Shown piece by piece: positions 6,812 through 42,824 of a stretch of 64,000 nucleotides of DNA. Numbering within the stretch: position 1 is the first letter of the stretch; each line of letters starts with the position of its first letter. A program made the position numbers and the translations under genes. The notes under the pieces were generated by a model, which saw nothing but the letters and a program-made list of their open reading frames with translations, was not told where the DNA came from and ran no database searches. The stretch comes from Acidimicrobiales bacterium (GTDB lineage: Bacteria > Actinomycetota > Acidimicrobiia > Acidimicrobiales > Bin134), in contig OY760141.1 in the NCBI GenBank assembly GCA_963663255.1, forward strand, positions 1,823,584 through 1,887,583, in the 5' to 3' direction.

Positions 6812-7801
6812 TTGAGCATGACCGCGGCCGCCCAACACGCCTACGACAGCTACGAAGCCTTGGTGGAGGACTATTTCGAGAAGGGATGGACCGACGGGTT
6901 GCCCATCATGCCCCCCACTCCCGAAAAGGTGGCCGCGTTCTTGGAGCGTTCCGGGCTCTCCGGGGGTGAGGTGCTGGGCACGGTTCCCACCCGGGAGGTG
7001 ACCTGCACTGCGGAGCAGGCCGCGGCCAACGCGGTCATGGCCGGCTGCCTGCCGGAGTACTTTCCCGCGGTTGTGGCCGCGGTGCGGGCCCACCTACACC
7101 CCAAGGGCAATTGCCACTCCACCACCGGCACGCTCTCGGGCGCGGCCCAGGCGGTGATCATCAACGGGCCCGTTCGCAATGATCTGGGTGTGGCCTCGGC
7201 CGCGGGCTGCTTCGGACCCGGATTTCGGGCCAATGCCACCATCGGTCGGGCGCTTCGCCTGGTTATCCGCAACGTGTGCCGGGGCATCCCCGGGTTCTTG
7301 GACCGAGCCAGCTATTCCACGCCGGCCCGCTACACCTTTTGCTTCGGCGAGAACGAGGAGGCCTCCGACTGGGAGCCGCTCCACGTCCAGCGGGGACTGG
7401 ATGCTGAGCAGAGCGCAGTGACCGTCCACTCACTCATGAAGATGGTCGAGGCCACCGACTTCACCAGCCGCTCCGCCGAGGGAGTGTGCGACACGCTGGT
7501 GACGAATATCCGGGCCAACGGCATTGCCGGGGACTCGTGGCTGGGCGAGGACGGCAACGTGGTGATCGTGATCGGCCATGAGCACCATCGCTTCTTCATC
7601 GAGGAGGGCTGGTCGAAAACCGATATCCAGCAGCATCTGTGGCCCCGGCTCAATGCGCCCGCCACCAGCGCCACCGACCGCATGGCCCGCATCGGCAAGC
7701 CCGAGGGCATCCTGATCGTGGCCGCCGGAGGAGCTGGCATGGGAGCCAGCTGGCTATTGCTACCCCACCTAGCCCTAGCCATAACCGAGCCAATCTCCTA
7801 G
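6812..7801 (+). CDS. Conserved hypothetical protein, partner of UGSC (seleno)protein
   Basis: GWTDGLPIMPPT, AANAVMAGC, FGPGFRANATIGRAL, FCFGENEE motifs of a family I recall adjacent to UGSC genes. Confidence 0.7.
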   Translation: MSMTAAAQHAYDSYEALVEDYFEKGWTDGLPIMPPTPEKVAAFLERSGLSGGEVLGTVPTREVTCTAEQAAANAVMAGCLPEYFPAVVAAVRAHLHPKGNCHSTTGTLSGAAQAVIINGPVRNDLGVASAAGCFGPGFRANATIGRALRLVIRNVCRGIPGFLDRASYSTPARYTFCFGENEEASDWEPLHVQRGLDAEQSAVTVHSLMKMVEATDFTSRSAEGVCDTLVTNIRANGIAGDSWLGEDGNVVIVIGHEHHRFFIEEGWSKTDIQQHLWPRLNAPATSATDRMARIGKPEGILIVAAGGAGMGASWLLLPHLALAITEPIS

Positions 7802-31056: not shown

Positions 31057-32267
31057 TCGACCCCCACGCGGGCCATTGCCGAGCGAAGGCCCAGGGTCAG
31101 GATTCCGGTTAGGCCAGCGACCCCGGCAAGCAGCACAAGCCCGGCGCCGAAACCACCGATGTCGGCGAGAACGCCGAACAAAATCGGTCCGGTTACGCCA
31201 CCGGCCTCACCAACGGTGAAGAACAACCCACCGGCCGCTCCCATATTTCGCTGCGCTACGCCGGGGAGCTGCATCATCACCACAAGGGCAATCGGAACTG
31301 CCAGCCCCCTGCTTATGCCGATGACGGCCAAACCGGCCAAGGTGGCCGCCTTGACGTCCAGATAGAGCAGAATGGAGGCGACGGCGAACACGGCATAAAC
31401 CCATGCCATGACCGCGATCCGACCGTTTTCTGGGATCAGGCGCGGCCCAAGCAGCGCACCGACGATGCTGAGGGCAGTGACCGCACCAGCCAGGTAGCCC
31501 GCTGCTGAACTGGAGAATCCCCGGTCTTCGATCACGGTTGGCAGCCATCCATTGAGGGCGTGGTTGAAGAAGAACATGCCAAGGGCCACGATCAGCATGA
31601 GCTGAACGGCCCGATGGCGCAACAGGCCCCTGGCGCCAGAGAAGCCGTGGTCGGGATTGGCATCGCGGTCCACTCCAGGAGCGAGCTTCTCTCCGGCGGA
31701 AGCAGCAACCAACCAGACAGCGATGATCGCCACGGTGATGAGGGCGTAAACCATGAGCGTCGCCCGCCAGCTCTGGTCGAATGCCGGCATGAGGAGGCTG
31801 TTGGCGGTAACCAGGGGCAAGACTCCGCCGATTGCCGGCGCAGACATGGTGATCCCCATGGCAAGCGCTCTCTCCTCCTCGTCGAACCACACGCTGATCA
31901 ACTTGGGGGCACCCACCGAAACCAGCGGCCCGCCGAGGCCAAACAATGCCACCGAGCCAAACATGCCGATGAAGTTGGTGACGACCGGGCGTAGCAGGGC
32001 GGAGGCGGAGATGATCACGGTGGCGATTCCCAGCGAGCGGCGCAGTCCGAGCCGATCGACAAGTGCTCCAGCTGGCATCGCCGCAACGAGAAACACCAGA
32101 GGCCAAGCACCCAGAATCGTGCCCATTGCCCCTTTGCTCAGATCCAAGTCTTCTCGGATCACGTTTACCAGCGGAGTCATGCCGAATACCGCTATTCCGA
32201 AGGAGAAGTACACCAGCCACAGTGCCCCCAGCATCACCCAGCGATAGGGATGGCGGTGGTGGAACAC
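31053..32267 (-). CDS. MFS transporter (CynX-like)
   Basis: About 12 TM segments, [11 protein letters not shown] motif A. Confidence 0.88.
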
Positions 32268-32314
32268 GTCGGCAACGTATCAACCTGCCGCAGTCGATCT
32301 GTCATGCTGGCTCG

Positions 32315-33028
32315 ATGGGATTAGCAGTTGTAACCGGTGCGGGACAGGGGCTCGGGCGGGCGATCTCCAAGCGCCTGACCGCCGATGGACACCAGATCGT
32401 GGCGGTGGATCAGAATCCGAAAACCGCCTCGGCCACCGCAGAAGAGCTCGGCGGCCATTGGCGGCAGTGCGATGTCTCCGACCCTGAATCAGTGGCCGCT
32501 TTGGCCAAGTCGCTAGATCATGTGGACGTGCTGGTGAACAACGCCGGCATCTGGATCTTCGCCAAGCTGGACACCATGACCCCAGAAGACGTGCGCCGGG
32601 TGTTGGAGGTAAACGTGATGGGGGTATTCAACTGCACGCAGGCGTTGGCCCCCCTGATGGGACCGGGTTCGGCCATTGTCAACCTCTCGTCGAATGCGGC
32701 CAATTCCAACTCCCCGGGAGTGGGTATCTACCCGCCGTCCAAGGCCGCGGTGGAGAGCTTCACCAAACAGACCTCTCTGGAGCTGGCCCCTCGGGGCATC
32801 CGGGCCAACGCCGTCGGCCCGGGAATGATCCAAACCGAGGGAACCCAGGTCAACTACGAGGGCGAAATGGGCGAACGACGGGCCCGGGCGGTGCCGCTGG
32901 GTAGAACTGGTCGACCCGACGACATTGCCGATGTAGTGGGTTTCTTGGCCTCCAACGACGCCCGTTACGTAACCGGCCAGGTCATTTACGTCGACGGAGG
33001 ACTCAGCGCGGGCCGAGCGGCGCTTTAG
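32315..33028 (+). CDS. SDR family oxidoreductase
   Basis: TGAGQGLG, NNAG, YPPSK, TGQVIYVDGG. Confidence 0.9.
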   Translation: MGLAVVTGAGQGLGRAISKRLTADGHQIVAVDQNPKTASATAEELGGHWRQCDVSDPESVAALAKSLDHVDVLVNNAGIWIFAKLDTMTPEDVRRVLEVNVMGVFNCTQALAPLMGPGSAIVNLSSNAANSNSPGVGIYPPSKAAVESFTKQTSLELAPRGIRANAVGPGMIQTEGTQVNYEGEMGERRARAVPLGRTGRPDDIADVVGFLASNDARYVTGQVIYVDGGLSAGRAAL

Positions 33029-33059
33029 CCGTAGCTTGCCCTGAATGCCCCCTCCGCGT

Positions 33060-33078
33060 CCTCGACTCCGCGTCGAGG
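33060..33078. terminator. Hairpin between convergent genes
   Basis: CCTCGAC-tccgc-GTCGAGG, no U-tract. Confidence 0.45.
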
Positions 33079-33084
33079 CAAGCG

Positions 33085-34263
33085 TCACCAGTTGCTGGAC
33101 TCCTCTGCGTGGACATGATCGGGCAAGTGATAGGTGATGCCGTCATCGTGGTACCAGGATCCCGACAAAAGTGTAGTGAAGTTTGAAATGTTGCTCTTGC
33201 GTGCGATCTTGGGGAGGAACCGCAAAGTGAAACGGTCGTACCTGGCCTGTAAGCGGAACCAAGGAAACACGCCGAAGGTGGACTGCTCGGGATATTTCAA
33301 CTGATTGGACAGTGTGTCTCCGATGAGCGCCCGCGACACCTTGTAGACGTACTGCGACAATTTCCGTCCCTCGACTGGGTCGTCTATACCAACAACCAGG
33401 GGTGCCGAGTTGACCAGCGAGTTGGCCAGAACGACAGATGAAGCGCTGGGCTCTGGCTCGCACATGGTGCCAATCTCATACAGCTTCAATGCATCTTCTT
33501 CGCCATGGAAGAGGATCGACTCAGGAATCCCCATGAGAAGCCCCGAGTAGCGCCACGTCGCCATGAAACTCGCCGCCTCTTCCTCACTGAAGTTTGCTCC
33601 CAGGCTCCTCATGTGCTTTAGCAGCCGTGCGGAGAACGCGGTGATGGCGTAGCCATTGTGGGCTGCGCTCAACGGGACGCCCAAGGCGTCCTCGTCCCAC
33701 TCTTCAGAGTTCTTGAGCAAGTACCTGACTTGGGCATGGACAAGGCGGATCCGAAAAGAGAGCCTCCATCCGTCTCCGCGGGGCGCCATGCCGCCGGGAA
33801 GGAAGAGTTCCACCATATGGCGGTTGTTCTGCTGAAGGCGCCGCACACCCTGGTCGCGCAGTTTGCCGGTAATGAAGAACGACTCGCTGATGTTGGTGGA
33901 GAAGCCTTCTATCAGAACTCCGGCCAGCATTCCTGCCACAACCATCTTTCGGTTCCGATGGAACATGTGGATGCCGGCAGTAAGTGCAGGAAGATCGAGC
34001 CAATCTGGTGGCGTCAAGACCTCTTCAAAGAGTGCATGGACCTCCTTGGGCGCGTCAGGAGGATCATTCCCATCGGGGACACTCATGTAGGCCGAGATGA
34101 GATGGTTGGATTCCGAGCGCTTCAACTTGGAGAGAGCCTCGACGGCGGCATCAGCCAATGGGTCGCCGATCATGGTGTGAGCGAGGTAGTTCTCGGCCAT
34201 CTCCGGGGAGAGGGCGCGGGCGCGCGTGTATCCGGGGTTGCCATAATCGGTGGGAATCTTCAT
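33085..34263 (-). CDS. MpaB/Lcp-like heme oxygenase (DUF2236)
   Basis: GDPLADAAV, PPDWLD, RIRLVHAQVR (Lcp heme-His motif), WD...GVPL. Confidence 0.82.
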   Translation of the reverse strand: MKIPTDYGNPGYTRARALSPEMAENYLAHTMIGDPLADAAVEALSKLKRSESNHLISAYMSVPDGNDPPDAPKEVHALFEEVLTPPDWLDLPALTAGIHMFHRNRKMVVAGMLAGVLIEGFSTNISESFFITGKLRDQGVRRLQQNNRHMVELFLPGGMAPRGDGWRLSFRIRLVHAQVRYLLKNSEEWDEDALGVPLSAAHNGYAITAFSARLLKHMRSLGANFSEEEAASFMATWRYSGLLMGIPESILFHGEEDALKLYEIGTMCEPEPSASSVVLANSLVNSAPLVVGIDDPVEGRKLSQYVYKVSRALIGDTLSNQLKYPEQSTFGVFPWFRLQARYDRFTLRFLPKIARKSNISNFTTLLSGSWYHDDGITYHLPDHVHAEESSNW

Positions 34264-34572
34264 AGACTCGTCACGGTCACTTCAGGGCTAAAGCTGTCCG
34301 GCGAAAAAATTCTGGCGGGCGATGATAGTCGAGTCTACTTGCAGGGGAGAGTGTGCCATACCACTCATGCAGTCGAACCTCACATCACTCAGAAAATACA
34401 CCACCGTCGCCTCCGCGCTGGCGAACCAAGTGAACCGCGGCCACGATCGGCAACTGGGCTGAGTCTGGCCATCTGGCGTTCGCACAGGTCGGGGCCGATC
34501 CGCCTAGTTGGGTTCAATCTCATTGGAAATGGCCTCAGTAATGACCCCGCAGGACAATGGCCGGTAGGATGT

Positions 34573-34586
34573 TAGAACAAGTTCTA
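34573..34586. promoter_or_regulatory. KstR-type operator palindrome
   Basis: TAGAACAAGTTCTA is a full match to TnnAACnnGTTnnA, 2 nt after a TAGGAT -10 (34565-34570). Confidence 0.7.
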
Positions 34587-34604
34587 TCCATAGGGACCGA
34601 ATTC

Positions 34605-35774
34605 ATGCGGATGCCACATTCGTACATTGAAGGCTATGAGCGGGCCAAGGCGGTGGATCCGGCTCTCGCAGACGCCTACGTCAAGAACACCCTTGTCGGC
34701 GACCCACTGGCGGATGCAGCCATGGAAGCTCTGGCCGACTTCAGCCAGGGGCAATCACATCGTCTCATAGAGGCGGGGATGAATGGGGACGAGGAGACGA
34801 TGCGAGAGGCCCCGGAGGCTCTACGAGTGTTCTTCCGCGAACTCGATAACCCGCCGCCGTTCGAGTTCGACCCGCAGAAGGCCGCAGTGGGCACCCGCGT
34901 CTTCTACAAGTACGCGGACCTCTTCCTTGTCGGGCTTCTGCTGGAATCGATCTTCGCCGACATTACCAAGGGGCAGAGCAAGGTGCTCTACACCACGGGC
35001 CGCATGGTGGGAAATCTCCGCCGGGTCAAGCAGAACACCCGGCATCTCCTGGAGATCACCTTGCCCGGTGGGATGGACCGCTACGGCGACGGATGGAAGC
35101 TGACGGTCCGAATTAGAATGATCCACGCACAAGTCCGGAAGATGTTGCTCGATTCGGGCGAATGGGACGTTCCCGACGAAGGACTCCCGCTGCACATGGG
35201 GCACATGGCACTGGGGGCCACTGCATTCTCTGCCACACAACTCCAGTCGGCGCGGAAACTGGGGGTTCCGTTGACCGAGGAGGAGAGCGCTGGTTTCATG
35301 CACATCTGGCATTACGTCACCTGGCTGCTCGGTGTGCCCGAGGAACTGCTTTTCGCGACCGAAAAGGAGGCCAATTACAAGCGGAAGATCGCCCACATGT
35401 GCGAGGAACCGCCCGGTGAGATGGCGACCGAAGTGGCCCACGGCTACATCTCTGCTGTTCCCGATATGATCGGCATTACCGAGCCGGCCAAGCGGAAGAG
35501 GCTGATGAGCACTCTGTACCGCACCTCGCGAGCGTTGATGGGGAACGAGTTGGCCGACATGCTCGAGTTTCCGAAGCAGTCGACATTCGGCGCCCTGGCG
35601 CTTGTTCGGACGCAACGAAGAGCCAAGATCCTCTACTCGAAGATCGTGCCAGGAGCGTCATCGCACGAATTCAACAATTTCTCCGAATTGCTGCAACGAT
35701 CAGTTTACGACCACTCCGGCATCAACTACCGCATGCCGGATGCAATCAAGGACTCGGCGTCTACTCCGTGGTGA
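34605..35774 (+). CDS. MpaB/Lcp-like heme oxygenase (DUF2236), paralog of the divergent gene
   Basis: GDPLADAAM, RIRMIHAQVR, EWD..DEGLPL; colinear similarity with 33085-34263. Confidence 0.82.
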   Translation: MRMPHSYIEGYERAKAVDPALADAYVKNTLVGDPLADAAMEALADFSQGQSHRLIEAGMNGDEETMREAPEALRVFFRELDNPPPFEFDPQKAAVGTRVFYKYADLFLVGLLLESIFADITKGQSKVLYTTGRMVGNLRRVKQNTRHLLEITLPGGMDRYGDGWKLTVRIRMIHAQVRKMLLDSGEWDVPDEGLPLHMGHMALGATAFSATQLQSARKLGVPLTEEESAGFMHIWHYVTWLLGVPEELLFATEKEANYKRKIAHMCEEPPGEMATEVAHGYISAVPDMIGITEPAKRKRLMSTLYRTSRALMGNELADMLEFPKQSTFGALALVRTQRRAKILYSKIVPGASSHEFNNFSELLQRSVYDHSGINYRMPDAIKDSASTPW

Positions 35775-35787
35775 CGTGCTGAAGTCT

Positions 35788-35816
35788 TGAGCCTCCCGAG
35801 GTCCTCGGAAGGCTCA
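35788..35816. terminator. Hairpin between convergent genes
   Basis: TGAGCCT-c-CCGAG-gtc-CTCGG-a-AGGCTCA. Confidence 0.6.
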
Positions 35817-35824
35817 GATTGCTG

Positions 35825-38278
35825 TCAGCCTGCTTGGCGTGCCCGGCGGTGGTGCCGCGACCACAGCACGAGCAGCGGCGGCAGCACGGTGAACGTGGAG
35901 ATGAGCGTCAGCAGAATCGTTGCTGACGTGAGCACGCCCAATTCCTGAACCGGCCGTAGAGGGGAGAACAGCAGGACGAGGAGTCCGAGAGCGGTGGTAA
36001 GAGCGCTTGCTACCAGCGCTCCGCCGGTTGTGGTCATGGCCTGCGTCAGGGCATGGGTGGAGTCATTGGATTCTTGCTCGGCGTGGATGAACCGGTGTGT
36101 GAGATGGATGGTGTAGTCCACGCCGATCCCGATGGTCAGAGCCACAACCAAGGCCGTGAGCACGTTGTATGAGATCCCGAGAATCCACATGGCCGCCAGT
36201 AGCCAGGAAACGACCATCGCGATGGGAAGCATGCAGAACAGTCCGAGAGTTGGGCGGCGTGCGCTGAAGCCGAAGTAGAGCAGCAGAATCGCCAAGGCCG
36301 CGGCAATAGTCAATGGAATAGTGACCGTTTGGCTGCGCCCCAACTCTGAGTTGATGAGAGCAGAAAGGGTCTCACCGCCCGTGGCTGTGGTCTGCGAGCC
36401 GTCACCACCCCAGAGGTCATCGAGCTCGTCGAGTAGCTGCGGGAGGAGTGTGGCGCTGTTTGCCGCGACCGGGATTTGGAGAATGGTGCGATCGGGGCCA
36501 TCTGGGCGTAGGTCCATGACCGTCGCGAAGCTTTCTGGGTCGGTCTCCTCCAGAAGTGCCCACGCCTGGCGAGCCTGATCGTCGGTAGCCAAGGAGCCGG
36601 GGCTCAGGTCGGCGAATGCGGCCGCAATGGCCGGGTCGTGCTTGTCACCTGGTTGCCCGCTCATGGTGGACCAGTCGGCGAGCAGCGTCACCGCTGAGGC
36701 GATGGGAGGCCCGACGATGCCCTCCGGGCGCGAGTCAGGAGAGCTCAGGGCCGCAGAGTAGTCGAGCAGGTGCCGGGTGGAAGCGGCGGTGTCGAGGTCG
36801 GCCTCCACGAGGATCGTGACCGTCGAGGCGTCCGCACCGAAGTTGTCCTCGATAAATATGATCGTCTCAAGCACGTTGGAGTCGCGGGGGAGGAAATGAT
36901 TTGGATCGGTAGTCGTATCGATGTTTGTTGCCCCGATGACTGCCAGGATTGTCACCACGACGGCACCGCCCAACACCGTCAGCGGGCGACGCGCGATCGC
37001 CCTCGCGGCGAGGGAGAGGGCCGCTCCGGTGCCCGGAACGGTATCGGCGACGGGCATGGTGGCCAGCTGACGGCCCTTGGCTGCGCGCCTGCGGTCCACC
37101 AGCAGCCGGGCGGCCGGCACAAAGCTGGTCATCACAATCCAACCCGAGGCGACTCCAATGGCGGCGAGGAGGCCGAAGTCGGCTACCGGCTCAAACCTGC
37201 TCGTGAGGTTCATGAGAAGGCTGACCGCAGTCGTGCCTGCCGCGAGCAGCACCGGCACCCCAGATGCCTTGACGGCGTGGCCGATGGACCGGCCGGTCGC
37301 ACCCTCGCCCGGTTCGGATCCTTCGTGTGCCAGCGCCTCCCGGTAGCGACTCGTGATTTGAAGCGCATAGTCCACGCTTAAGCTGATGAGAAGGACCAGT
37401 ACAATCGGGACGAAGATATTGCCGGGGTCGAGGATGTCAGCGCCACCGGGCGACAACCACGCCTGAGCGCCGAGGGTCCACGCCAGGGTGATACCGAGGC
37501 CGATCATCGTGATGTGGACATCCGACTGGGTGCGGTAGAAGACGGTGAGTAGAAAGCCGATAACCACCAGTGCTATGACGGTCAGCAACGGAGTGCTGAC
37601 ATCGTTGACGTCGGCGACCTCCTTGGCTTTCTCCGCTGGGCTTACAGCCGCGACTTCCAGGGAACCCAGGCTTGCGGAGTCCACGATTTCGTGGATTCGC
37701 AGCTGGGCGTCTCGCAGACCGACGTCGTCGCCGGTGTCTTTGAGGGAGATCAGTGATAAGCCAGCAAGCGGTGTTCCAGCAGCGTCGCGGGGGACGATCT
37801 TCTCGAGCAGGTCATTGGCGACGGCAAGCTCTGGAGAAGTGGCCATGATGCGGACGACAGCATCGATGTCAGCGTCGGAAGCGGCGGAGGGGTCCAGGCC
37901 CAGCGCAAGCAGTACCGGCTCGATGGTTTGTACATACCCGGCCATGGGTTGATCCGCCAGGAAAGGAGCGACCTTGGGATCGCTCAAAATCCTTGCCTGA
38001 AGTCCTCTGGCTTCCTGGAAGGCCTCTGCGTCGAGAACGTCTCCCTTGGCGAGGAGTTGGACGGTCCGGATGTCCGCAGAGCCCGGAAAGCTCTCCCCAA
38101 CGGCGTCAAGGGCCTTGGCCAACTCGCTGCCAGACGGCAAGAAGGCGCCAATAGGGTCGGGAACCTCGGGGGTGTCTTGGACGAGGAAGCCGGATAGCAG
38201 AAGGATTGTGGCGGCGACGATGCTCGCGACCACCAGTCGCGGAGACTTCTGAATCCTCTGGGCCTGCCAGTTGGACAT
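35825..38278 (-). CDS. MMPL/RND family transporter
   Basis: Duplicated architecture, LSVDYALQI and IGIGVDYTIH motifs, 817 aa. Confidence 0.88.
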   Translation of the reverse strand: MSNWQAQRIQKSPRLVVASIVAATILLLSGFLVQDTPEVPDPIGAFLPSGSELAKALDAVGESFPGSADIRTVQLLAKGDVLDAEAFQEARGLQARILSDPKVAPFLADQPMAGYVQTIEPVLLALGLDPSAASDADIDAVVRIMATSPELAVANDLLEKIVPRDAAGTPLAGLSLISLKDTGDDVGLRDAQLRIHEIVDSASLGSLEVAAVSPAEKAKEVADVNDVSTPLLTVIALVVIGFLLTVFYRTQSDVHITMIGLGITLAWTLGAQAWLSPGGADILDPGNIFVPIVLVLLISLSVDYALQITSRYREALAHEGSEPGEGATGRSIGHAVKASGVPVLLAAGTTAVSLLMNLTSRFEPVADFGLLAAIGVASGWIVMTSFVPAARLLVDRRRAAKGRQLATMPVADTVPGTGAALSLAARAIARRPLTVLGGAVVVTILAVIGATNIDTTTDPNHFLPRDSNVLETIIFIEDNFGADASTVTILVEADLDTAASTRHLLDYSAALSSPDSRPEGIVGPPIASAVTLLADWSTMSGQPGDKHDPAIAAAFADLSPGSLATDDQARQAWALLEETDPESFATVMDLRPDGPDRTILQIPVAANSATLLPQLLDELDDLWGGDGSQTTATGGETLSALINSELGRSQTVTIPLTIAAALAILLLYFGFSARRPTLGLFCMLPIAMVVSWLLAAMWILGISYNVLTALVVALTIGIGVDYTIHLTHRFIHAEQESNDSTHALTQAMTTTGGALVASALTTALGLLVLLFSPLRPVQELGVLTSATILLTLISTFTVLPPLLVLWSRHHRRARQAG

Positions 38279-38478
38279 CGTCGAATCCTAGAACATCCGC
38301 AGAGTGTCCGATCTCACGTTACCTGGCGAATCTGAGCTGGGGTTCGCCACGGCCATGAGACGGTGCGGCACCCCTTTGTCTCGACGTAGGTGGCGAAGTC
38401 GGTGGGCAGGCTCTTCGCTCATGTGGCGCCCGCCTCATTACTCGTCGGCTTCGACAGCGCAACCCCTAGATTGATTGG

Positions 38479-39876
38479 GTGCGTTTAGCCCCTGAGAACC
38501 TCACAGCCACAAGGGAACACCCCTTCCTCAATGACAGGCTGGGCCGAGGCCCACAGATACAAGCCTTGTGCGGGCTAATAGAGAGCGTGTCCGACCATGC
38601 TGTCGTTTCACTCGACGGCCCCTGGGGATCAGGGAAGACCGCTTTCATGACCATGTGCTCGGCCGAGCTGCGCCGCAGGAAGGTCCGAGTAGTCGATTTC
38701 AACGCCTGGCAGCAGAGCCACACAAAAAGCCCAATAGTAGACTTGGTGTCCGCCATTGCCTATGAGCAGGGAGGCTCGTGGACCGACGACATCAAAAAGA
38801 CCCTCTTGGACGTGAGCCTGCATCTGGCCAAGATCGGCTCCCGGGGCCTCATCGACCGAGACGCAATCGAACCCAACAATCAGAAGGGCTTCGACACCTA
38901 GCGTGACGCCAACACCAAAGTGGAGGAGTTTAAGGCCGCGCTGCGACAAGCCTGCTCCCACGCAAACGACCTCGTGGCCGGACGGCTGGTGGTGCTCGTC
39001 GACGAACTGGACCGATGCCGGCCCGCCCACGCCCTGGACCTCATCGAGACAGTCCGCCACCTCTTCGCAGTTGAAGGCGTCGTGGTTGTACTTGCCGTCA
39101 ACCGAGAAGAGCTGTGCCATTCGATCCAAAGCCTGTATGGAGCGGATTTCGACGCAGACCGCTACCTTCGCCGCTTCGCGGACCTTGCCTGCATCCTTCC
39201 CCCCCCGACATCCGACCAAATGGCGGCATTCACGACCGAACTCCTCTCAGGACTTGGCCTCGATGGCCGTTTCTTCGCCGGGAGAACGCCCGACTACAGC
39301 CCGTCGATCCTGCAAAAGATCACAGACGGGTCACGCCATAACCTGCGAGACCTCCAACAAGCGCTCCACCTAGCGGCCGTGTCGCTAGATTCCCCCAAGA
39401 TCGCGGAAGGCTCCCCAACCGACAACTGGGGATCAAAGCAAAAGGCGGCGGCGCTGATCGTCCTCCGAACGCTCAGCCCCGCCGCCTACCGGAACCTGGC
39501 AAACGGGGACAGCGCCTTCGCGGCGGTCGCCGCCATGAACCGGGCACTCACCGATGACCCAGCCACTCTCGCGGACACCTCCACATGGGACACAGCCCAC
39601 GAGAAGCTCGAAGCCTCACTCCTCGCAGAAACCCTCAATGCGCTGATTGCGGGCCCACCAGGCCTCCGCGGGGAGGACTCCGCCCAAGACGCCTTTCACA
39701 AACGGTACGCAGGCGCCTTCGCCGCGGCATTCGACGGGACCGCCGCCGCCCTACAAGCCGCCGAATTCCGGGCCAAAGGAATCACATACGCAACTGGCAA
39801 GCGTCTCACAAACCAGACGTCGTCGACGATGCGGATAGACCAGCTCGTCGGGATAATAGACCTCACCGCCTACTAG
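38479..39876 (+). pseudogene. KAP family P-loop NTPase interrupted by one in-frame TAG (38899-38901)
   Basis: Walker A LDGPWGSGKT and FNAW in the 5' half; Walker B VVLVDELDRCRP and YLRRF in the 3' half; both halves in the same frame. Confidence 0.85.
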
Positions 39877-39947
39877 AACTGCTTACCCTCTACCATCACC
39901 CCGACCACAGAAAATACTCCGTAGCCTCACCCCCTAGCCCTCGAAGC

Positions 39948-40014
39948 TTCGCCTGCCATCTGAGATTTTCGCCACATTTTTGAGACCATTCGCCAAATTC
40001 CTGAGATTTCGCCA
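39948..40014. repeat. Subterminal direct repeats (TGAGA..TTCGCCA), about 20-bp period
   Basis: TTCGCC at 39948, 39968, 39989, 40008; inverted copies at 38324 and 38391. Confidence 0.85.
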
Positions 40015-40240
40015 ACTAGAACGAGATCGGACAAGAGGGACGAGGATGACCTGCTGCCCGATCCCCATAGCTTTACATAACATGTATTCTCAACGTTTAG
40101 GGAAGGAATCGAGTTATCTAAAAACATTGAAAATAGCTGTTGATATCTGAAAGAACAGTGAATATAGTGCTCTGACTGGCTTGAGTCAGAGCTATCGGCC
40201 CCACCGGCCCTTGTCGAGAAGCAATGAACGGAAGGGTTGT

Positions 40241-41326
40241 ATGGGTGCCGTCCACCGAATGTGGCTGGCCGCAACGTTGCTGTCGACGGCCTGCGCGAGC
40301 AACGGCGCCGATCTGACCGCGGCCTCTTCGCCAACTGCTTTGTCGGCGCCTGCCGCTGCGGTGCTGCTGACCGACCCAGGCCAGAAAGAGGCCCTCGAAT
40401 CGAAGGCCGCTCCATCTCGGGCGGTGCCGCCCGCCACCGGACTCGCCACAACCCCCGGGCCGGCGAAGCCATTGCCGGGAGCCACGGCCACCCCGACACC
40501 GGGGTTGCCCACGAATTGGACACTCAGCCCCCGCGCCAGTAGCGCCAGCTCTATGGATCCGGTAGTCAACCACTCACCCGGCCATTCCCATCCCGACCCT
40601 GCTGCCGATGAGTGGAGTTCGGAAGCTACGTGGCGGGACATTCCTCCTGGTGCCGACGATGAGGGCGGGACTAGCGATGGTGAATACCAGCTGCCGCCAC
40701 CGTCGCTGGAGAGCGCCTGGACAGAGGACTCTACCGGTGAGTACCAGGTGCTTCGGCCTGCTACCCGGGAGGAATTGGGCGGATTTCGCGTGGTCTCACC
40801 CCCCGCGGAGGCCTTGGGCTGGATGACCCGGTGCGTGAATCATCATGCAGACCCGCCGGCTTCCTCGCCATGGCCCCAGGATGTGCGCGCGTCGCAGGCC
40901 GTTTTGGGCTGCACCACCAGCGCAGGCTTGATGGAGCAGGCCATACAGCGTTACGGCGCAGAACGTGAGTGCGTGCAGCAGGCGTATTCCGACGACTACA
41001 GCGTGGTCGGCGGACAGGGGAACTCTTGGACGCAGTGCCCGACCATTGGAAATCCGACCCCGCTTGACGGGCGGCCATTCGCGGAAAAATGCCGCGACGT
41101 TGTGTTCCGGGGCCTGGTGCTCAAGGGGCAACCCCGGCTGGAGAGGATCGCCGCCGATACCTGTGAGCTATTCGAAGCCGATCTTGTTGCGCACCTCGCA
41201 GTTCCGGGAACAACCGAATTGTGTGCCGAGCACTGGGTGTTGAACGCCGTGCTCGATGCCGAGGCGCCGGGGGCGGTGCCCGGACTGCACCAGCACGTGG
41301 GGGTGAACACCAGTGGGACGTGCTGA
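40241..41326 (+). CDS. Putative lipoprotein with Pro/Thr-rich linker and Cys-rich C-terminal domain
   Basis: MWLAATLLSTA-C lipobox-like signal; GGAAGGG SD; several Cys in the distal half. Confidence 0.6.
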   Translation: MGAVHRMWLAATLLSTACASNGADLTAASSPTALSAPAAAVLLTDPGQKEALESKAAPSRAVPPATGLATTPGPAKPLPGATATPTPGLPTNWTLSPRASSASSMDPVVNHSPGHSHPDPAADEWSSEATWRDIPPGADDEGGTSDGEYQLPPPSLESAWTEDSTGEYQVLRPATREELGGFRVVSPPAEALGWMTRCVNHHADPPASSPWPQDVRASQAVLGCTTSAGLMEQAIQRYGAERECVQQAYSDDYSVVGGQGNSWTQCPTIGNPTPLDGRPFAEKCRDVVFRGLVLKGQPRLERIAADTCELFEADLVAHLAVPGTTELCAEHWVLNAVLDAEAPGAVPGLHQHVGVNTSGTC

Positions 41327-41330
41327 CCGC

Positions 41331-42824
41331 ATGCGGGTGGCCGCCGCCGTTGTGACCGCCGCTCTGCTCGCGCTGCTGATAAGCCCTGCGCCGGGAGCCG
41401 CCGATCTAAAGCTTGATCTCGGCTGGCCCTCTTGCGATGCCGCGTCGCCGGGGCAGTGGTGCTGGACCAGCCGCACCTCGCTGGCCCATGAATACGCCCA
41501 CACCAACCAATTTGTCGAGTACGCCGGCACACCCTTCGGAAAACAGTCGACCGGGAATTCCCGTTCCACGTCCTGTGTCGTTCACAGTACGAGCGAGGGG
41601 TGCGGTCACAGCCCGCCCGCAGCCGACACCCCTGGGGCCTGGTACGAGTTTGGGGGCCACTGGTGGACGCCGCAGACGTACTACTGGTCTTACACCGGGC
41701 ATTGGAAGCCCGTGCCTCCCCCGCCGACGGCTACTCCGACGCCCCCACCAACGCCGAGTCCTACAGCGACGCCCACGCCTCGGCCCACGGTGATCCCTAC
41801 AGCGACGCCCACGCCTCGGCCCACGGTGACCCCTACCCCGACGCCCACGCCTCGGCCCACGGTGACCCCTACCCCGACGCCCACGCCTCGGCCCACGGTG
41901 ACCCCTACCCCGACGGCGACGCCTCGGCCCACGGTGACCCCTACCCCGACGGCTACTGCGGTTCCGACGGCGACGCCTCGGCCCACGGTGACCCCTACCC
42001 CGACGGCTACGCCTCGGCCCACGGCCACTCCGACTGCTACTGCGGTTCCGACGGCCACGCCTCGGCCCACTCCGACGGCTACTGCGACTCCCCCTCCCCC
42101 GCCGCCTCCGCCGCCTCCCCCACCTCCGCCGCCTCCATGGAAGACCTGCACGTCGGCGTGGACCGACCAGACCCGGATGTCGCTGCTGCGGCGGGTGCGG
42201 TGGGAGTCGATTGTTCCCTACGCCAGTGGTTTCACCGGACATCACCATCCAGAGGTACCGGGCGGGCGGCTGTTTCTGACCGCGGCGTCAAGGGCGGGCC
42301 ACACGGTGCGCCATTGGACAGCTCTGCAACCGGGGTCAACGCTCGATGTGCTCGACGCCCCGGTGAACGGATGCCTTTGGACGGCCACTGGTGTCGGGGT
42401 GTCGCTACGAGAGCTGCTTCCCTACGAGCCTGCTGATCTGGCCAAGCTGAAGGCTCCGGGCGACGTGGCTGCGAAGGACACGGCCATAAAGGCAGCCGCG
42501 CTGTGGGATCTGCTGAATGCGCAGCGCAGGCAATGGTTCCAAGCCGCCTTTGCCCGCAACGATCCTTCCATCGTCTGGTGCCCGCCCGGTGACTTGCCCC
42601 CTTGGACCGTGCCGGAAGACGGTGTGTTGTCTTTGTCCCCCGCCTGGGAAGCGGCCCACGGGCACTGTCGGTGGTCGATCCCCCGTCGGGGCTTCTGGGT
42701 GTGGAGCCTGCAAGTTCAGTACACCTCTGAGCAGGGCGATCACCACACCCTGGTCTTGGCCGATGATCTGTCCTGGTTCCGCGAGCCGACCGAGTATCTG
42801 GGCCAACGGATCACAATATGGTGA
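41331..42824 (+). CDS. Secreted protein with PT-rich stalk (putative adhesin or minor pilus protein)
   Basis: Signal peptide MRVAAAVVTAALLALLISPAPGAA; Trp/Cys-rich domains flank the PTPRPTVT repeats. Confidence 0.7.
   Translation: MRVAAAVVTAALLALLISPAPGAADLKLDLGWPSCDAASPGQWCWTSRTSLAHEYAHTNQFVEYAGTPFGKQSTGNSRSTSCVVHSTSEGCGHSPPAADTPGAWYEFGGHWWTPQTYYWSYTGHWKPVPPPPTATPTPPPTPSPTATPTPRPTVIPTATPTPRPTVTPTPTPTPRPTVTPTPTPTPRPTVTPTPTATPRPTVTPTPTATAVPTATPRPTVTPTPTATPRPTATPTATAVPTATPRPTPTATATPPPPPPPPPPPPPPPPWKTCTSAWTDQTRMSLLRRVRWESIVPYASGFTGHHHPEVPGGRLFLTAASRAGHTVRHWTALQPGSTLDVLDAPVNGCLWTATGVGVSLRELLPYEPADLAKLKAPGDVAAKDTAIKAAALWDLLNAQRRQWFQAAFARNDPSIVWCPPGDLPPWTVPEDGVLSLSPAWEAAHGHCRWSIPRRGFWVWSLQVQYTSEQGDHHTLVLADDLSWFREPTEYLGQRITIW
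41716..42137 (+). repeat. Coding Pro/Thr tandem repeats (30-nt core) and poly-Pro
   Basis: gcctcggcccacggtgacccctaccccgac repeated; encodes (TPTPTPRPTV)n then a poly-Pro run. Confidence 0.92.

Follow-up and report, generated by a model that had tools for sequence, protein, structure and literature searches.

A probable Tn7-like transposon remnant beside a dif-like site in an Acidimicrobiales chromosome

Introduction

The closest described counterparts of the element reported here are the Tn7-like transposons, the Tn5053/Tn402 elements and the insertion sequences IS1202/ISAjo2. The element is a 1729-bp segment (38305-40033) of a 64,000-nucleotide stretch of DNA from an Acidimicrobiales bacterium (GenBank assembly GCA_963663255.1, contig OY760141.1, positions 1,823,584 to 1,887,583 of the forward strand), which we call the window and to which all plain coordinates refer. 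Within this segment two arrays of short repeats enclose a single frame for a KAP-family P-loop NTPase, interrupted by an in-frame stop codon. We conclude that it is very probably a non-autonomous Tn7-like remnant that retains both end arrays and one inactivated KAP cargo gene, and that lies at the attachment spot of its lineage beside the chromosomal dif site.

The Tn5053/Tn402 elements, known as 'res site hunters', encode TniA, TniB, TniQ and TniR and target the res sites of plasmids and transposons. Tn7 remnants at attachment sites are also known: Parks and Peters are said to have described, in 2007, decayed Tn7 copies that leave fixed islands at attTn7. The ends of the prototype Tn7 are described as having three spaced sites on the left and four overlapping sites on the right (PMC9308760). 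The IS1202/ISAjo2 elements, as presented in PMC10132070, are about 1.5 kb long with 24-26-bp TGT...ACA inverted repeats and 5-bp duplications; they encode a single TnsB-like transposase of 441-457 aa, have one extra binding site per end and, as the 'dif site hunters' of Acinetobacter, lie 5 bp from the XerC arm. A survey of Tn7 cargo refers to an Actinobacteria-dominated clade as experimentally uncharacterised, and a word search of its main text returns neither 'dif' nor 'KAP' (PMC8649781); word searches of PMC11014353 and PMC10293859 return no description of dif as a target. Our literature searches retrieved no multi-gene Tn7-like element targeting dif, although supplementary tables (e.g. those of PMC8649781) may list such sites; dif is probably an undescribed attachment site for Tn7-like elements.

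Results

Two end arrays of Tn7 type

The segment begins with TGT and ends with ACA. Its two ends are composed of the following features:

38305..38402, plus strand: left end region, terminal TGTCCGATCTC... plus three end units
38312-38330, plus strand: end unit L1 of the left end
38343-38360, inverted: end unit L2 of the left end
38379-38397, plus strand: end unit L3 of the left end
39937..40033, minus strand: right end region, four abutting end units plus terminal ...GAGATCGGACA
39948-39965 (R4), 39968-39985 (R3), 39989-40006 (R2) and 40008-40026 (R1): abutting units of the right end

The inverted arms (38305-38330 and 40008-40033) are 26 nt long each and complementary at 20 of the 26 positions (77%), in agreement with an earlier description made by a model from the letters of the DNA alone (the sequence-only reading), which had noted imperfect inverted ends starting with TGT. 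The end units are 18 or 19 nt long and are arranged asymmetrically: three spaced units on the left (38312-38397, the middle one inverted) and four abutting units on the right (39948-40026). The hexamer TTCGCC, which is part of the unit, had been correctly placed by the sequence-only reading at 39948, 39968, 39989 and 40008, with inverted copies at 38324 and 38391; one more, at 38343, had been overlooked.

These units are far more frequent than chance would allow. With at most one mismatch, TCTCA-N6-TGGCGAA is matched four times in the window against an expectation of 0.25, a number reached by none of 100 shuffles; the exact pattern TCTCR-N7-TGGCGAA is matched three times against 0.01 expected. 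All seven matches fall inside the two ends and none elsewhere in the window. Across the whole 3.51-Mb genome the joint pattern has 13 matches, namely these seven and six scattered singles; the same genome gave neither a second cluster of end units (joint pattern) nor another copy of either end (blastn). The repeats are putative TnsB-binding sites. To this extent the proposal that the segment is derived from a transposon, lacks a transposase and has ends of Tn7/Tn5053 type holds.

Related copies and family assignment

The region and its flanks were searched against 40 other genomes, 24 of them of the same genus (the genome of the window is G000). The ends were found in two congeners, G009 and G021. 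Over 98 nt the left end of the window is 78.6% identical to that of G009 and 74.5% identical to that of G021, with the units conserved in all three; homology at the right end starts at 39937 against G009 and at 39981 against G021. Similarity among the copies is confined to these end arrays of about 100 nt, and the interiors are unrelated.

The G009 copy occupies the same chromosomal spot as the window copy, its homologous left and right ends being 14.8 kb apart (L050:2223-17060). CTCAT stands on both of its flanks as a 5-bp duplication, and the flanks align separately to the unoccupied sites of G019, G008 and G024, the alignments meeting at the insertion point: hence, this copy represents a simple insertion with a 5-bp duplication. 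Internal extra ends, as expected of tandem or nested elements, were not found in it. Its tns operon is situated mid-element, about 7.4 kb from the right end, and comprises four genes: a 230-aa protein; a TnsB of 655 aa with rve/HTH (DDE) matches, whose relatives are named 'Mu transposase C-terminal domain-containing protein'; a TniB/AAA protein corresponding to TnsC/TniB (3.2e-15); and a TniQ-like protein (9e-06; 26.8 bits, just under the cut-off of 27). A homologue of the 230-aa gene, which is upstream of TnsB, precedes TnsB in 76 of 80 metagenome loci. The Pfam model Tn7_TnsA-like_N is matched by 17 of 23 aligned members of this protein (best 4.7e-08); the protein of G009 itself does not match it at E<=1, and a profile of the TnsA-like alignment gave chance matches only against PDB sequences. 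A Rhodococcus plasmid relative is annotated as TnsA-like, Mu transposase, TniB and TniQ, and plasmid records with a TnsB relative number 195.

The other two copies are reduced. In G021 the ends are about 1.1 kb apart and enclose a fragment of an IS3-like orfA (read by eye); there is no duplication and some units are degenerate. G048 has a lone right end, 85.7% identical to that of G009 over 56 nt and far from the dif-like motif of that genome; the 7 kb upstream contain no left end, and 15 kb of sequence around it no tns genes. Three units are recognisable in it (L148, G048:C1:350000-365000, at about 7260-7360). Thus an autonomous relative with the same ends, a prediction of the sequence-only reading, exists in G009, and the sister copies with other contents that it also foresaw exist in G021 and as the lone right end of G048. 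On its own account, the cargo of G009 (L050 9700-17000) comprises an OLD/AriA/GajA-like ATPase (651 aa), a tyrosine recombinase, an RDD protein, a DUF1508 protein, a DUF6036 nucleotidyltransferase and a 401-aa protein of no family.

Given the layout of three spaced left and four abutting right units, together with a four-gene relative that shares the same ends, we assign the window element to the Tn7-like family. In the element itself the KAP frame is the only gene with a family match, and since it contains no core genes we file it as a remnant rather than as an autonomous member. The genome around it provides no replacement: the four core proteins of G009 (TnsA-like, TnsB, TnsC and TniQ) have no homologue there (tblastn, E<=0.1), nor did searches for TnsB and TnsC homologues detect any. 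As none of the four transposition proteins is encoded, the element cannot move in its own genome. The idea of present-day mobilisation in trans finds no support in this, nor in the lack of a second copy of the ends or in the position of the element at its lineage's own attachment spot. TnsB was found in one of 40 genomes of the genus; at the level of the class it was detected in none of 401 genomes, with only the top three candidates per genome scored. The TniB model does match an 865-aa frame of the genome at 30.8 bits; this was not counted as TnsC, as the model matches 13 of 14 control genomes. The Pfam model Mu-transpos_C was uninformative for this genome, having matched no control genome.

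The KAP NTPase gene

The interior contains one recognisable gene and a short motif in front of it:

38467..38472, plus strand: TAGATT, a -10-like hexamer separated by 6 nt from the GTG with which the KAP frame starts
38479..39876, plus strand: KAP-family P-loop NTPase pseudogene (465 codons and a stop), interrupted in frame by TAG at 38899-38901

The Pfam KAP_NTPase domain (PF07693) matches both halves of the frame (8.9e-14 and 8.7e-18), a Walker A motif GSGKT is present, and over its full length the frame can be aligned with unbroken homologues (about 470-490 aa) of G008, G002 and G006. The TAG, which the sequence-only reading overlooked, aligns with a tryptophan in all three of these full-length homologues. 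Contigs of four runs from two studies have no base differing from the window in the parts that they cover, the TAG included; the assembly may itself derive from some of these runs, and the X5 contigs break near both element borders, leaving 38214-38312 uncovered. The KAP frame is therefore predicted to be inactivated by a nonsense codon at a conserved tryptophan.

The PADLOC candidate family PDC-S20 matches the two halves (5.1e-24 and 1.1e-40) and, more strongly, the intact G008 homologue (1e-67); PifA and QatA were matched more weakly. Hence the link of the cargo to defence is borne out at the level of a candidate family only, and the delivery of a working defence gene, which had been proposed, is not supported, given the nonsense codon at the conserved tryptophan and its recurrence in contigs from two studies. 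The arrangement TAGATT-6 nt-GTG is present at 38467-38481 as had been described and is a putative promoter; a sigma-70 scan gave no score there. Nucleotide homology to the KAP locus of G008 begins at 38465 and spans position -14 to the stop codon only.

The KAP gene was also considered as a core gene of the transposon and rejected in that role: a homologue is present in none of the 80 metagenome loci. The KAP piece of G009 is a fragment (residues 168-372), 45% identical and in the opposite orientation, and the closest homologue (G008, 70% at the nucleotide level) is situated between haem-synthesis genes with no tns genes nearby. This distribution marks the KAP gene as cargo and not a core component. 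Because the interiors are unlike and the G009 piece is merely 45% identical and reversed, deletion in place is not demonstrated. As separate observations, the G008 islet between the haem-synthesis genes (L051, G008:C11, 4429-8510) contains, besides the intact KAP homologue (469 aa), a Schlafen AlbA_2/HATPase_c_4/wHTH protein (470 aa) and a 313-aa protein of no family; and the genome of the window encodes a second KAP-family paralogue at C1:58064-58969, 36% identical over 300 residues.

The dif-like site and the replication terminus

A dif-like motif is found close to the right end:

40070..40097, minus strand: dif-like 28-mer with an 11-nt XerC-type arm, a 6-nt centre and an 11-nt XerD-type arm

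It is the XerD-type arm that points towards the element, 36 nt from the right end. The 28-mer is single-copy in its genome at up to four mismatches, and the motif is present in 34 of 40 genomes of the genus. An Rfam scan of 37900-40700 gave nothing beyond a sub-threshold chance match, so that an RNA gene offers no explanation for the conserved motif. By hand count against the sequences printed in PMC3025954, it agrees with the dif of B. subtilis at 18 of 28 positions (17 of 19 in the inner part) and with the predicted dif of Frankia alni at 19 of 28. The genome-wide maximum of the cumulative GC skew falls at 1.855 Mb and the motif at 1.8637 Mb, which puts the maximum about 1-9 kb from the motif. 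Inside a test interval of 300 kb, strand-skewed octamers selected from regions 160-860 kb away change orientation at a distance of 991 nt from the motif. The genome has two matches to the XerD model (326 and 263 bits). From the 11+6+11 form with its imperfect dyad symmetry, the single copy, the skew switch and the XerD-model matches, we take the 28-mer as the putative chromosomal dif.

Some observations concern the terminus more widely. dnaA is located at C1:901297-901800 (0.90 Mb), close to a local minimum of the skew (0.845 Mb), and the skew maximum of about 1.855-1.863 Mb corresponds to about 31400-40000 of the window. This implies very unequal replichores of about 1.0 and 2.5 Mb, which could reflect a real asymmetry, a large rearrangement or a misassembly. 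G021 (L147, G021:C1:2666054) and G014 (L149, G014:C1:2903545) each have a second dif-like core elsewhere. In G021 (L046) the sequence to the right of the motif beside the element lacks homology to the neighbour usually found on that side, a sign that dif or its vicinity may have been rearranged in that genome.

dif adjacency across the family

The distance between the right end and the XerD-type arm is 36 nt in the window, 38 nt in G009 and 37 nt in G021. Beyond the genus, a strict dif pattern is present in eight of the 80 metagenome loci, whose TnsB is 35-40% identical, and in seven of these it stands a short way ahead of the TnsA-like gene; under a relaxed consensus (14 or more of 17 positions) 12 loci matched, 10 of them within 1.1 kb upstream of that gene. 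A recognisable right terminus plus 90 nt of flank is available for 29 loci. Four of these flanks (L097, L110, L115 and L129) have a dif-like site at no fewer than 15 of 17 positions, against a chance expectation of about 3e-4, and inspection by eye added L116 as a fifth. These unrelated family members have dif sites of the canonical actinobacterial kind. The gaps to dif in L097, L110, L115, L116 and L129 are 30, 48, 46, 50 and 37 nt; in the lineages L071/L072/L079, L073 and L084 the distance to a dif-like site is 300-700 nt. In the TnsB tree the five metagenomic cases scatter over all three clades, and G009 forms a long outgroup branch. The arm turned towards the element is of XerC type in L097 and L116, and of XerD type in the other three and in the genus. 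Since either arm can face the element, recognition may go through dif-bound XerC/XerD rather than through the DNA alone. Candidate TniQ proteins encoded beside dif were identified in three metagenomic loci and are short (193-308 aa).

Several findings weigh against a general role for dif. The other 25 of the 29 flanks show other sequences; a dif-like site is present in none of 20 upstream stretches from 15 Actinomycetota genomes, nor beside the one Rhodococcus plasmid copy examined. Moreover, the three genus copies may descend from one insertion, since they share a common type of left-flank gene (an MMPL transporter, 75-77% identical in amino acids). dif adjacency is thus not general in the family. 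The narrower proposition, that a four-gene Actinomycetota Tn7-like lineage uses dif as its attachment site and inserts 30-50 bp away with the right end proximal, is in our judgement evenly balanced between true and false.

In addition, a palindrome, TTGTCACYGTGACG, is found 44-62 nt outside the right ends of L067, L071/L072/L079 and L073, and at about 100 nt in L084; it may be the real target of that metagenomic sub-lineage. In L073 the 690 nt that separate dif from the right end are taken up by an antitoxin-like ORF and by one that looks MazF-like by eye.

Flanks and left junction

The immediate surroundings of the element comprise:

35825..38278, minus strand: MMPL-family transporter gene, start codon 26 nt from the left end
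38301..38304, no strand: AGAG abutting the left end, either a leftover of a target duplication or a chance match
40034..40037, no strand: AGAG directly outside the right end
40140..41326, plus strand: right neighbour, with promoter-like TTGATA-17-TATAGT (40140-40168), a hairpin and a 381-aa ORF of no Pfam family

The AGAG repeat noted by the sequence-only reading is thus there on both sides. It may be due to chance (1 in 256) or be a trace of an insertion that postdates a rearrangement on the left. The right block (40140..41326) is the conserved right neighbour of dif, and its promoter-like site and the hairpin CTCTGAC...GTCAGAG that follows it (40140-40200) are both conserved across the genus. 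The next frame, a 503-aa ORF of no Pfam family (41313-42824), has internal nucleotide repeats at 41723-42135, visible as multiple offset blastn matches to relatives.

On the left, the MMPL gene is not the ancestral neighbour of the site. An empty site in which the MMPL upstream region is joined to 40038, as had been predicted, was not found, and the left neighbour differs in all five relatives examined. The gene order at 33085-38278 is likewise unlike that of the relatives. MMPL identity is 75-77% among the three element-bearing copies of the genus versus 56% in element-free genomes; for the gene of the window the 75-77% refers to G009 and G021 and the 56% to G008, G019 and G024. G024 is, despite this 56%, the closest to the window on the right flank. 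A degenerate second left end was sought upstream of a displaced oxygenase gene (at about 34295), and nothing there aligned to the three left ends.

Alternative explanations

A number of points weigh against the interpretation of the segment as a Tn7-like remnant at its lineage's attachment spot. The window lacks a 5-bp duplication: its repeat is the 4-bp AGAG, and in the 5-bp register the flanks CAGAG and AGAGG agree at one of five positions. A gene for an MpaB/Lcp-like oxygenase (87% amino-acid identity) adjoins the dif flank in all five relatives, whereas in the window it is located 4 kb further left, with the MMPL gene and a second oxygenase gene in between, and the left flank of the window aligns to no unoccupied site. 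From this different neighbour and unalignable flank it follows that the left junction was rearranged, or that the history is more complex. The interior shares no similarity at the DNA level with that of G009, and L2 is inverted relative to L1 and L3, a difference from Tn7. The genome is 96.3% complete by marker genes, and a transposition partner may be located on unassembled DNA. Finally, all seven units of the window are intact, whereas those of G021 are partly degenerate; a still-usable mini-element fits this as well as a young relic does.

The last point also speaks for the view that the segment is a working non-autonomous cassette, a natural 'mini-Tn7' that arrived without tns genes, mobilised in trans by an autonomous element then resident in the same cell, and could be remobilised. 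Such a cassette would account for an interior of exactly one gene with its own -10-like hexamer, for homology to G008 that runs from -14 to the stop codon only, and for ends that are conserved among G000, G009 and G021 while the interiors differ; AGAG could then be a real, if atypical, duplication. We nevertheless regard it as unlikely: the segment is single-copy, its cargo is broken, the four core proteins are without a homologue in its genome and TnsB is present in just one of the 40 genus genomes. It also sits at the same spot as the autonomous copy, with no movement to a new site seen, and the contigs of the four runs contain no joint that skips the element, though contigs can hide rare forms.

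The remaining candidates name other mobilising machineries. The sequence-only reading, on account of the 4-bp repeat, favoured an IS21-type non-autonomous element moved by IstA/IstB, for which the TG...CA ends and the repeated subterminal motifs would also speak. That preference fails on the genes of the relative with homologous ends (TnsA-like, TnsB, TnsC/TniB and TniQ), on its 5-bp duplication and on the 3-plus-4 asymmetric layout, which is Tn7-like; the sole match to the IstB model in the genome is dnaA, at 24.5 bits, and we hold this origin to be scarcely credible. A decayed 'dif site hunter' insertion sequence of the IS1202/ISAjo2 kind would have a similar size, type of end and closeness to dif, going by the account in PMC10132070. 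The only long frame is, however, a KAP NTPase and not a DDE transposase; there are seven end units and not two per end; the distance is 36 nt from the XerD-type arm and not 5 bp from the XerC arm; and G009, with its homologous ends, carries a four-gene module of Tn7 type. Such a descent is highly improbable. That the element adjoins dif would, lastly, suit a Xer-mobilised module (IMEX or dif module) inserted at dif by the host XerCD. Yet no second dif-like site is found across the element, the only other match at up to six mismatches being 1.28 Mb away; the element stands 36 nt from dif and not within it, its ends are of Tn7 type and its relative has a 5-bp duplication, so that the probability of this origin is close to nil.

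We therefore retain the non-autonomous Tn7-like remnant as the best explanation, and its formation can be pictured as follows. TnsB would bind the end units; TnsA and TnsB would excise the element, and TnsC with TniQ would deliver it. TniQ, alone or via XerC/XerD on dif, would place it 30-50 bp from dif with the right end proximal, and the tns genes would later have been lost, through deletion in place or before arrival. Since its seven units are intact, the arrival of a cognate element could in principle set the relic in motion again. By analogy with Tn7 it might also confer target immunity, shielding dif from related elements.

Significance and comparison with known systems

The window element is an ordinary kind of remnant, and it is the attachment site that is the point of interest: dif is a short, single-copy and nearly universal sequence to which known proteins bind. 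Should a TniQ-guided family read dif or the XerCD-dif complex, one theme would join Tn7-like targeting, 'res hunting' and the ISAjo2 'dif hunters'. Such a preference would help to explain why accessory and defence genes gather at replication termini, and cargo could be landed in Actinomycetota at a natural, programmable-free site. The case also illustrates how end architecture reveals a mobile-element history that ORF-based annotation overlooks.

With respect to its cargo, the window frame resembles the candidate family PDC-S20 and, more weakly, PifA and QatA; it differs in having a nonsense codon, and PDC-S20 is itself a candidate family only. With respect to Tn7, the likeness lies in the TGT...ACA ends, in the three spaced left and four abutting right units, in the 5-bp duplication and the TnsA-like, TnsB, TnsC/TniB and TniQ genes of G009, and in a right end that looks, across a few tens of bp, onto a conserved sequence that may serve for attachment. 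Unlike Tn7, the window copy has none of the genes, the tns operon of G009 is mid-element and not beside the right end, and the presumed attachment sequence is a dif-like site in place of a gene 3' end or an RNA gene. The decayed copies at attTn7 are comparable in that the transposition genes are lost while ends and cargo are kept at the attachment site; here the site and the phylum are different, and the remnant has shrunk to one broken cargo gene.

The IS1202/ISAjo2 elements, to the extent described in PMC10132070, share the TnsB-related transposase family, TGT...ACA ends, extra internal sites and 5-bp duplications, and insertion at a fixed distance from dif or pdif may be a further common trait; the Actinomycetota family differs from them in its four-gene machinery, in a distance of 30-50 nt and in facing either arm, depending on the lineage. 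The Tn5053/Tn402 elements share TniB and TniQ homologues, the 5-bp duplication and, probably, an attraction to a dimer-resolution site. They are without TnsA and have a serine resolvase, whereas the dif family has a TnsA-like core gene and is found at the chromosomal dif; among the 20 G009 ORFs scanned there is no serine resolvase, and G009 has a tyrosine recombinase. We give even odds to a dif-homing Tn7-like lineage, which would be the counterpart, on the chromosome, of the 'res hunters' of the Tn5053 kind and of the single-gene 'dif hunters' of the ISAjo2 kind.

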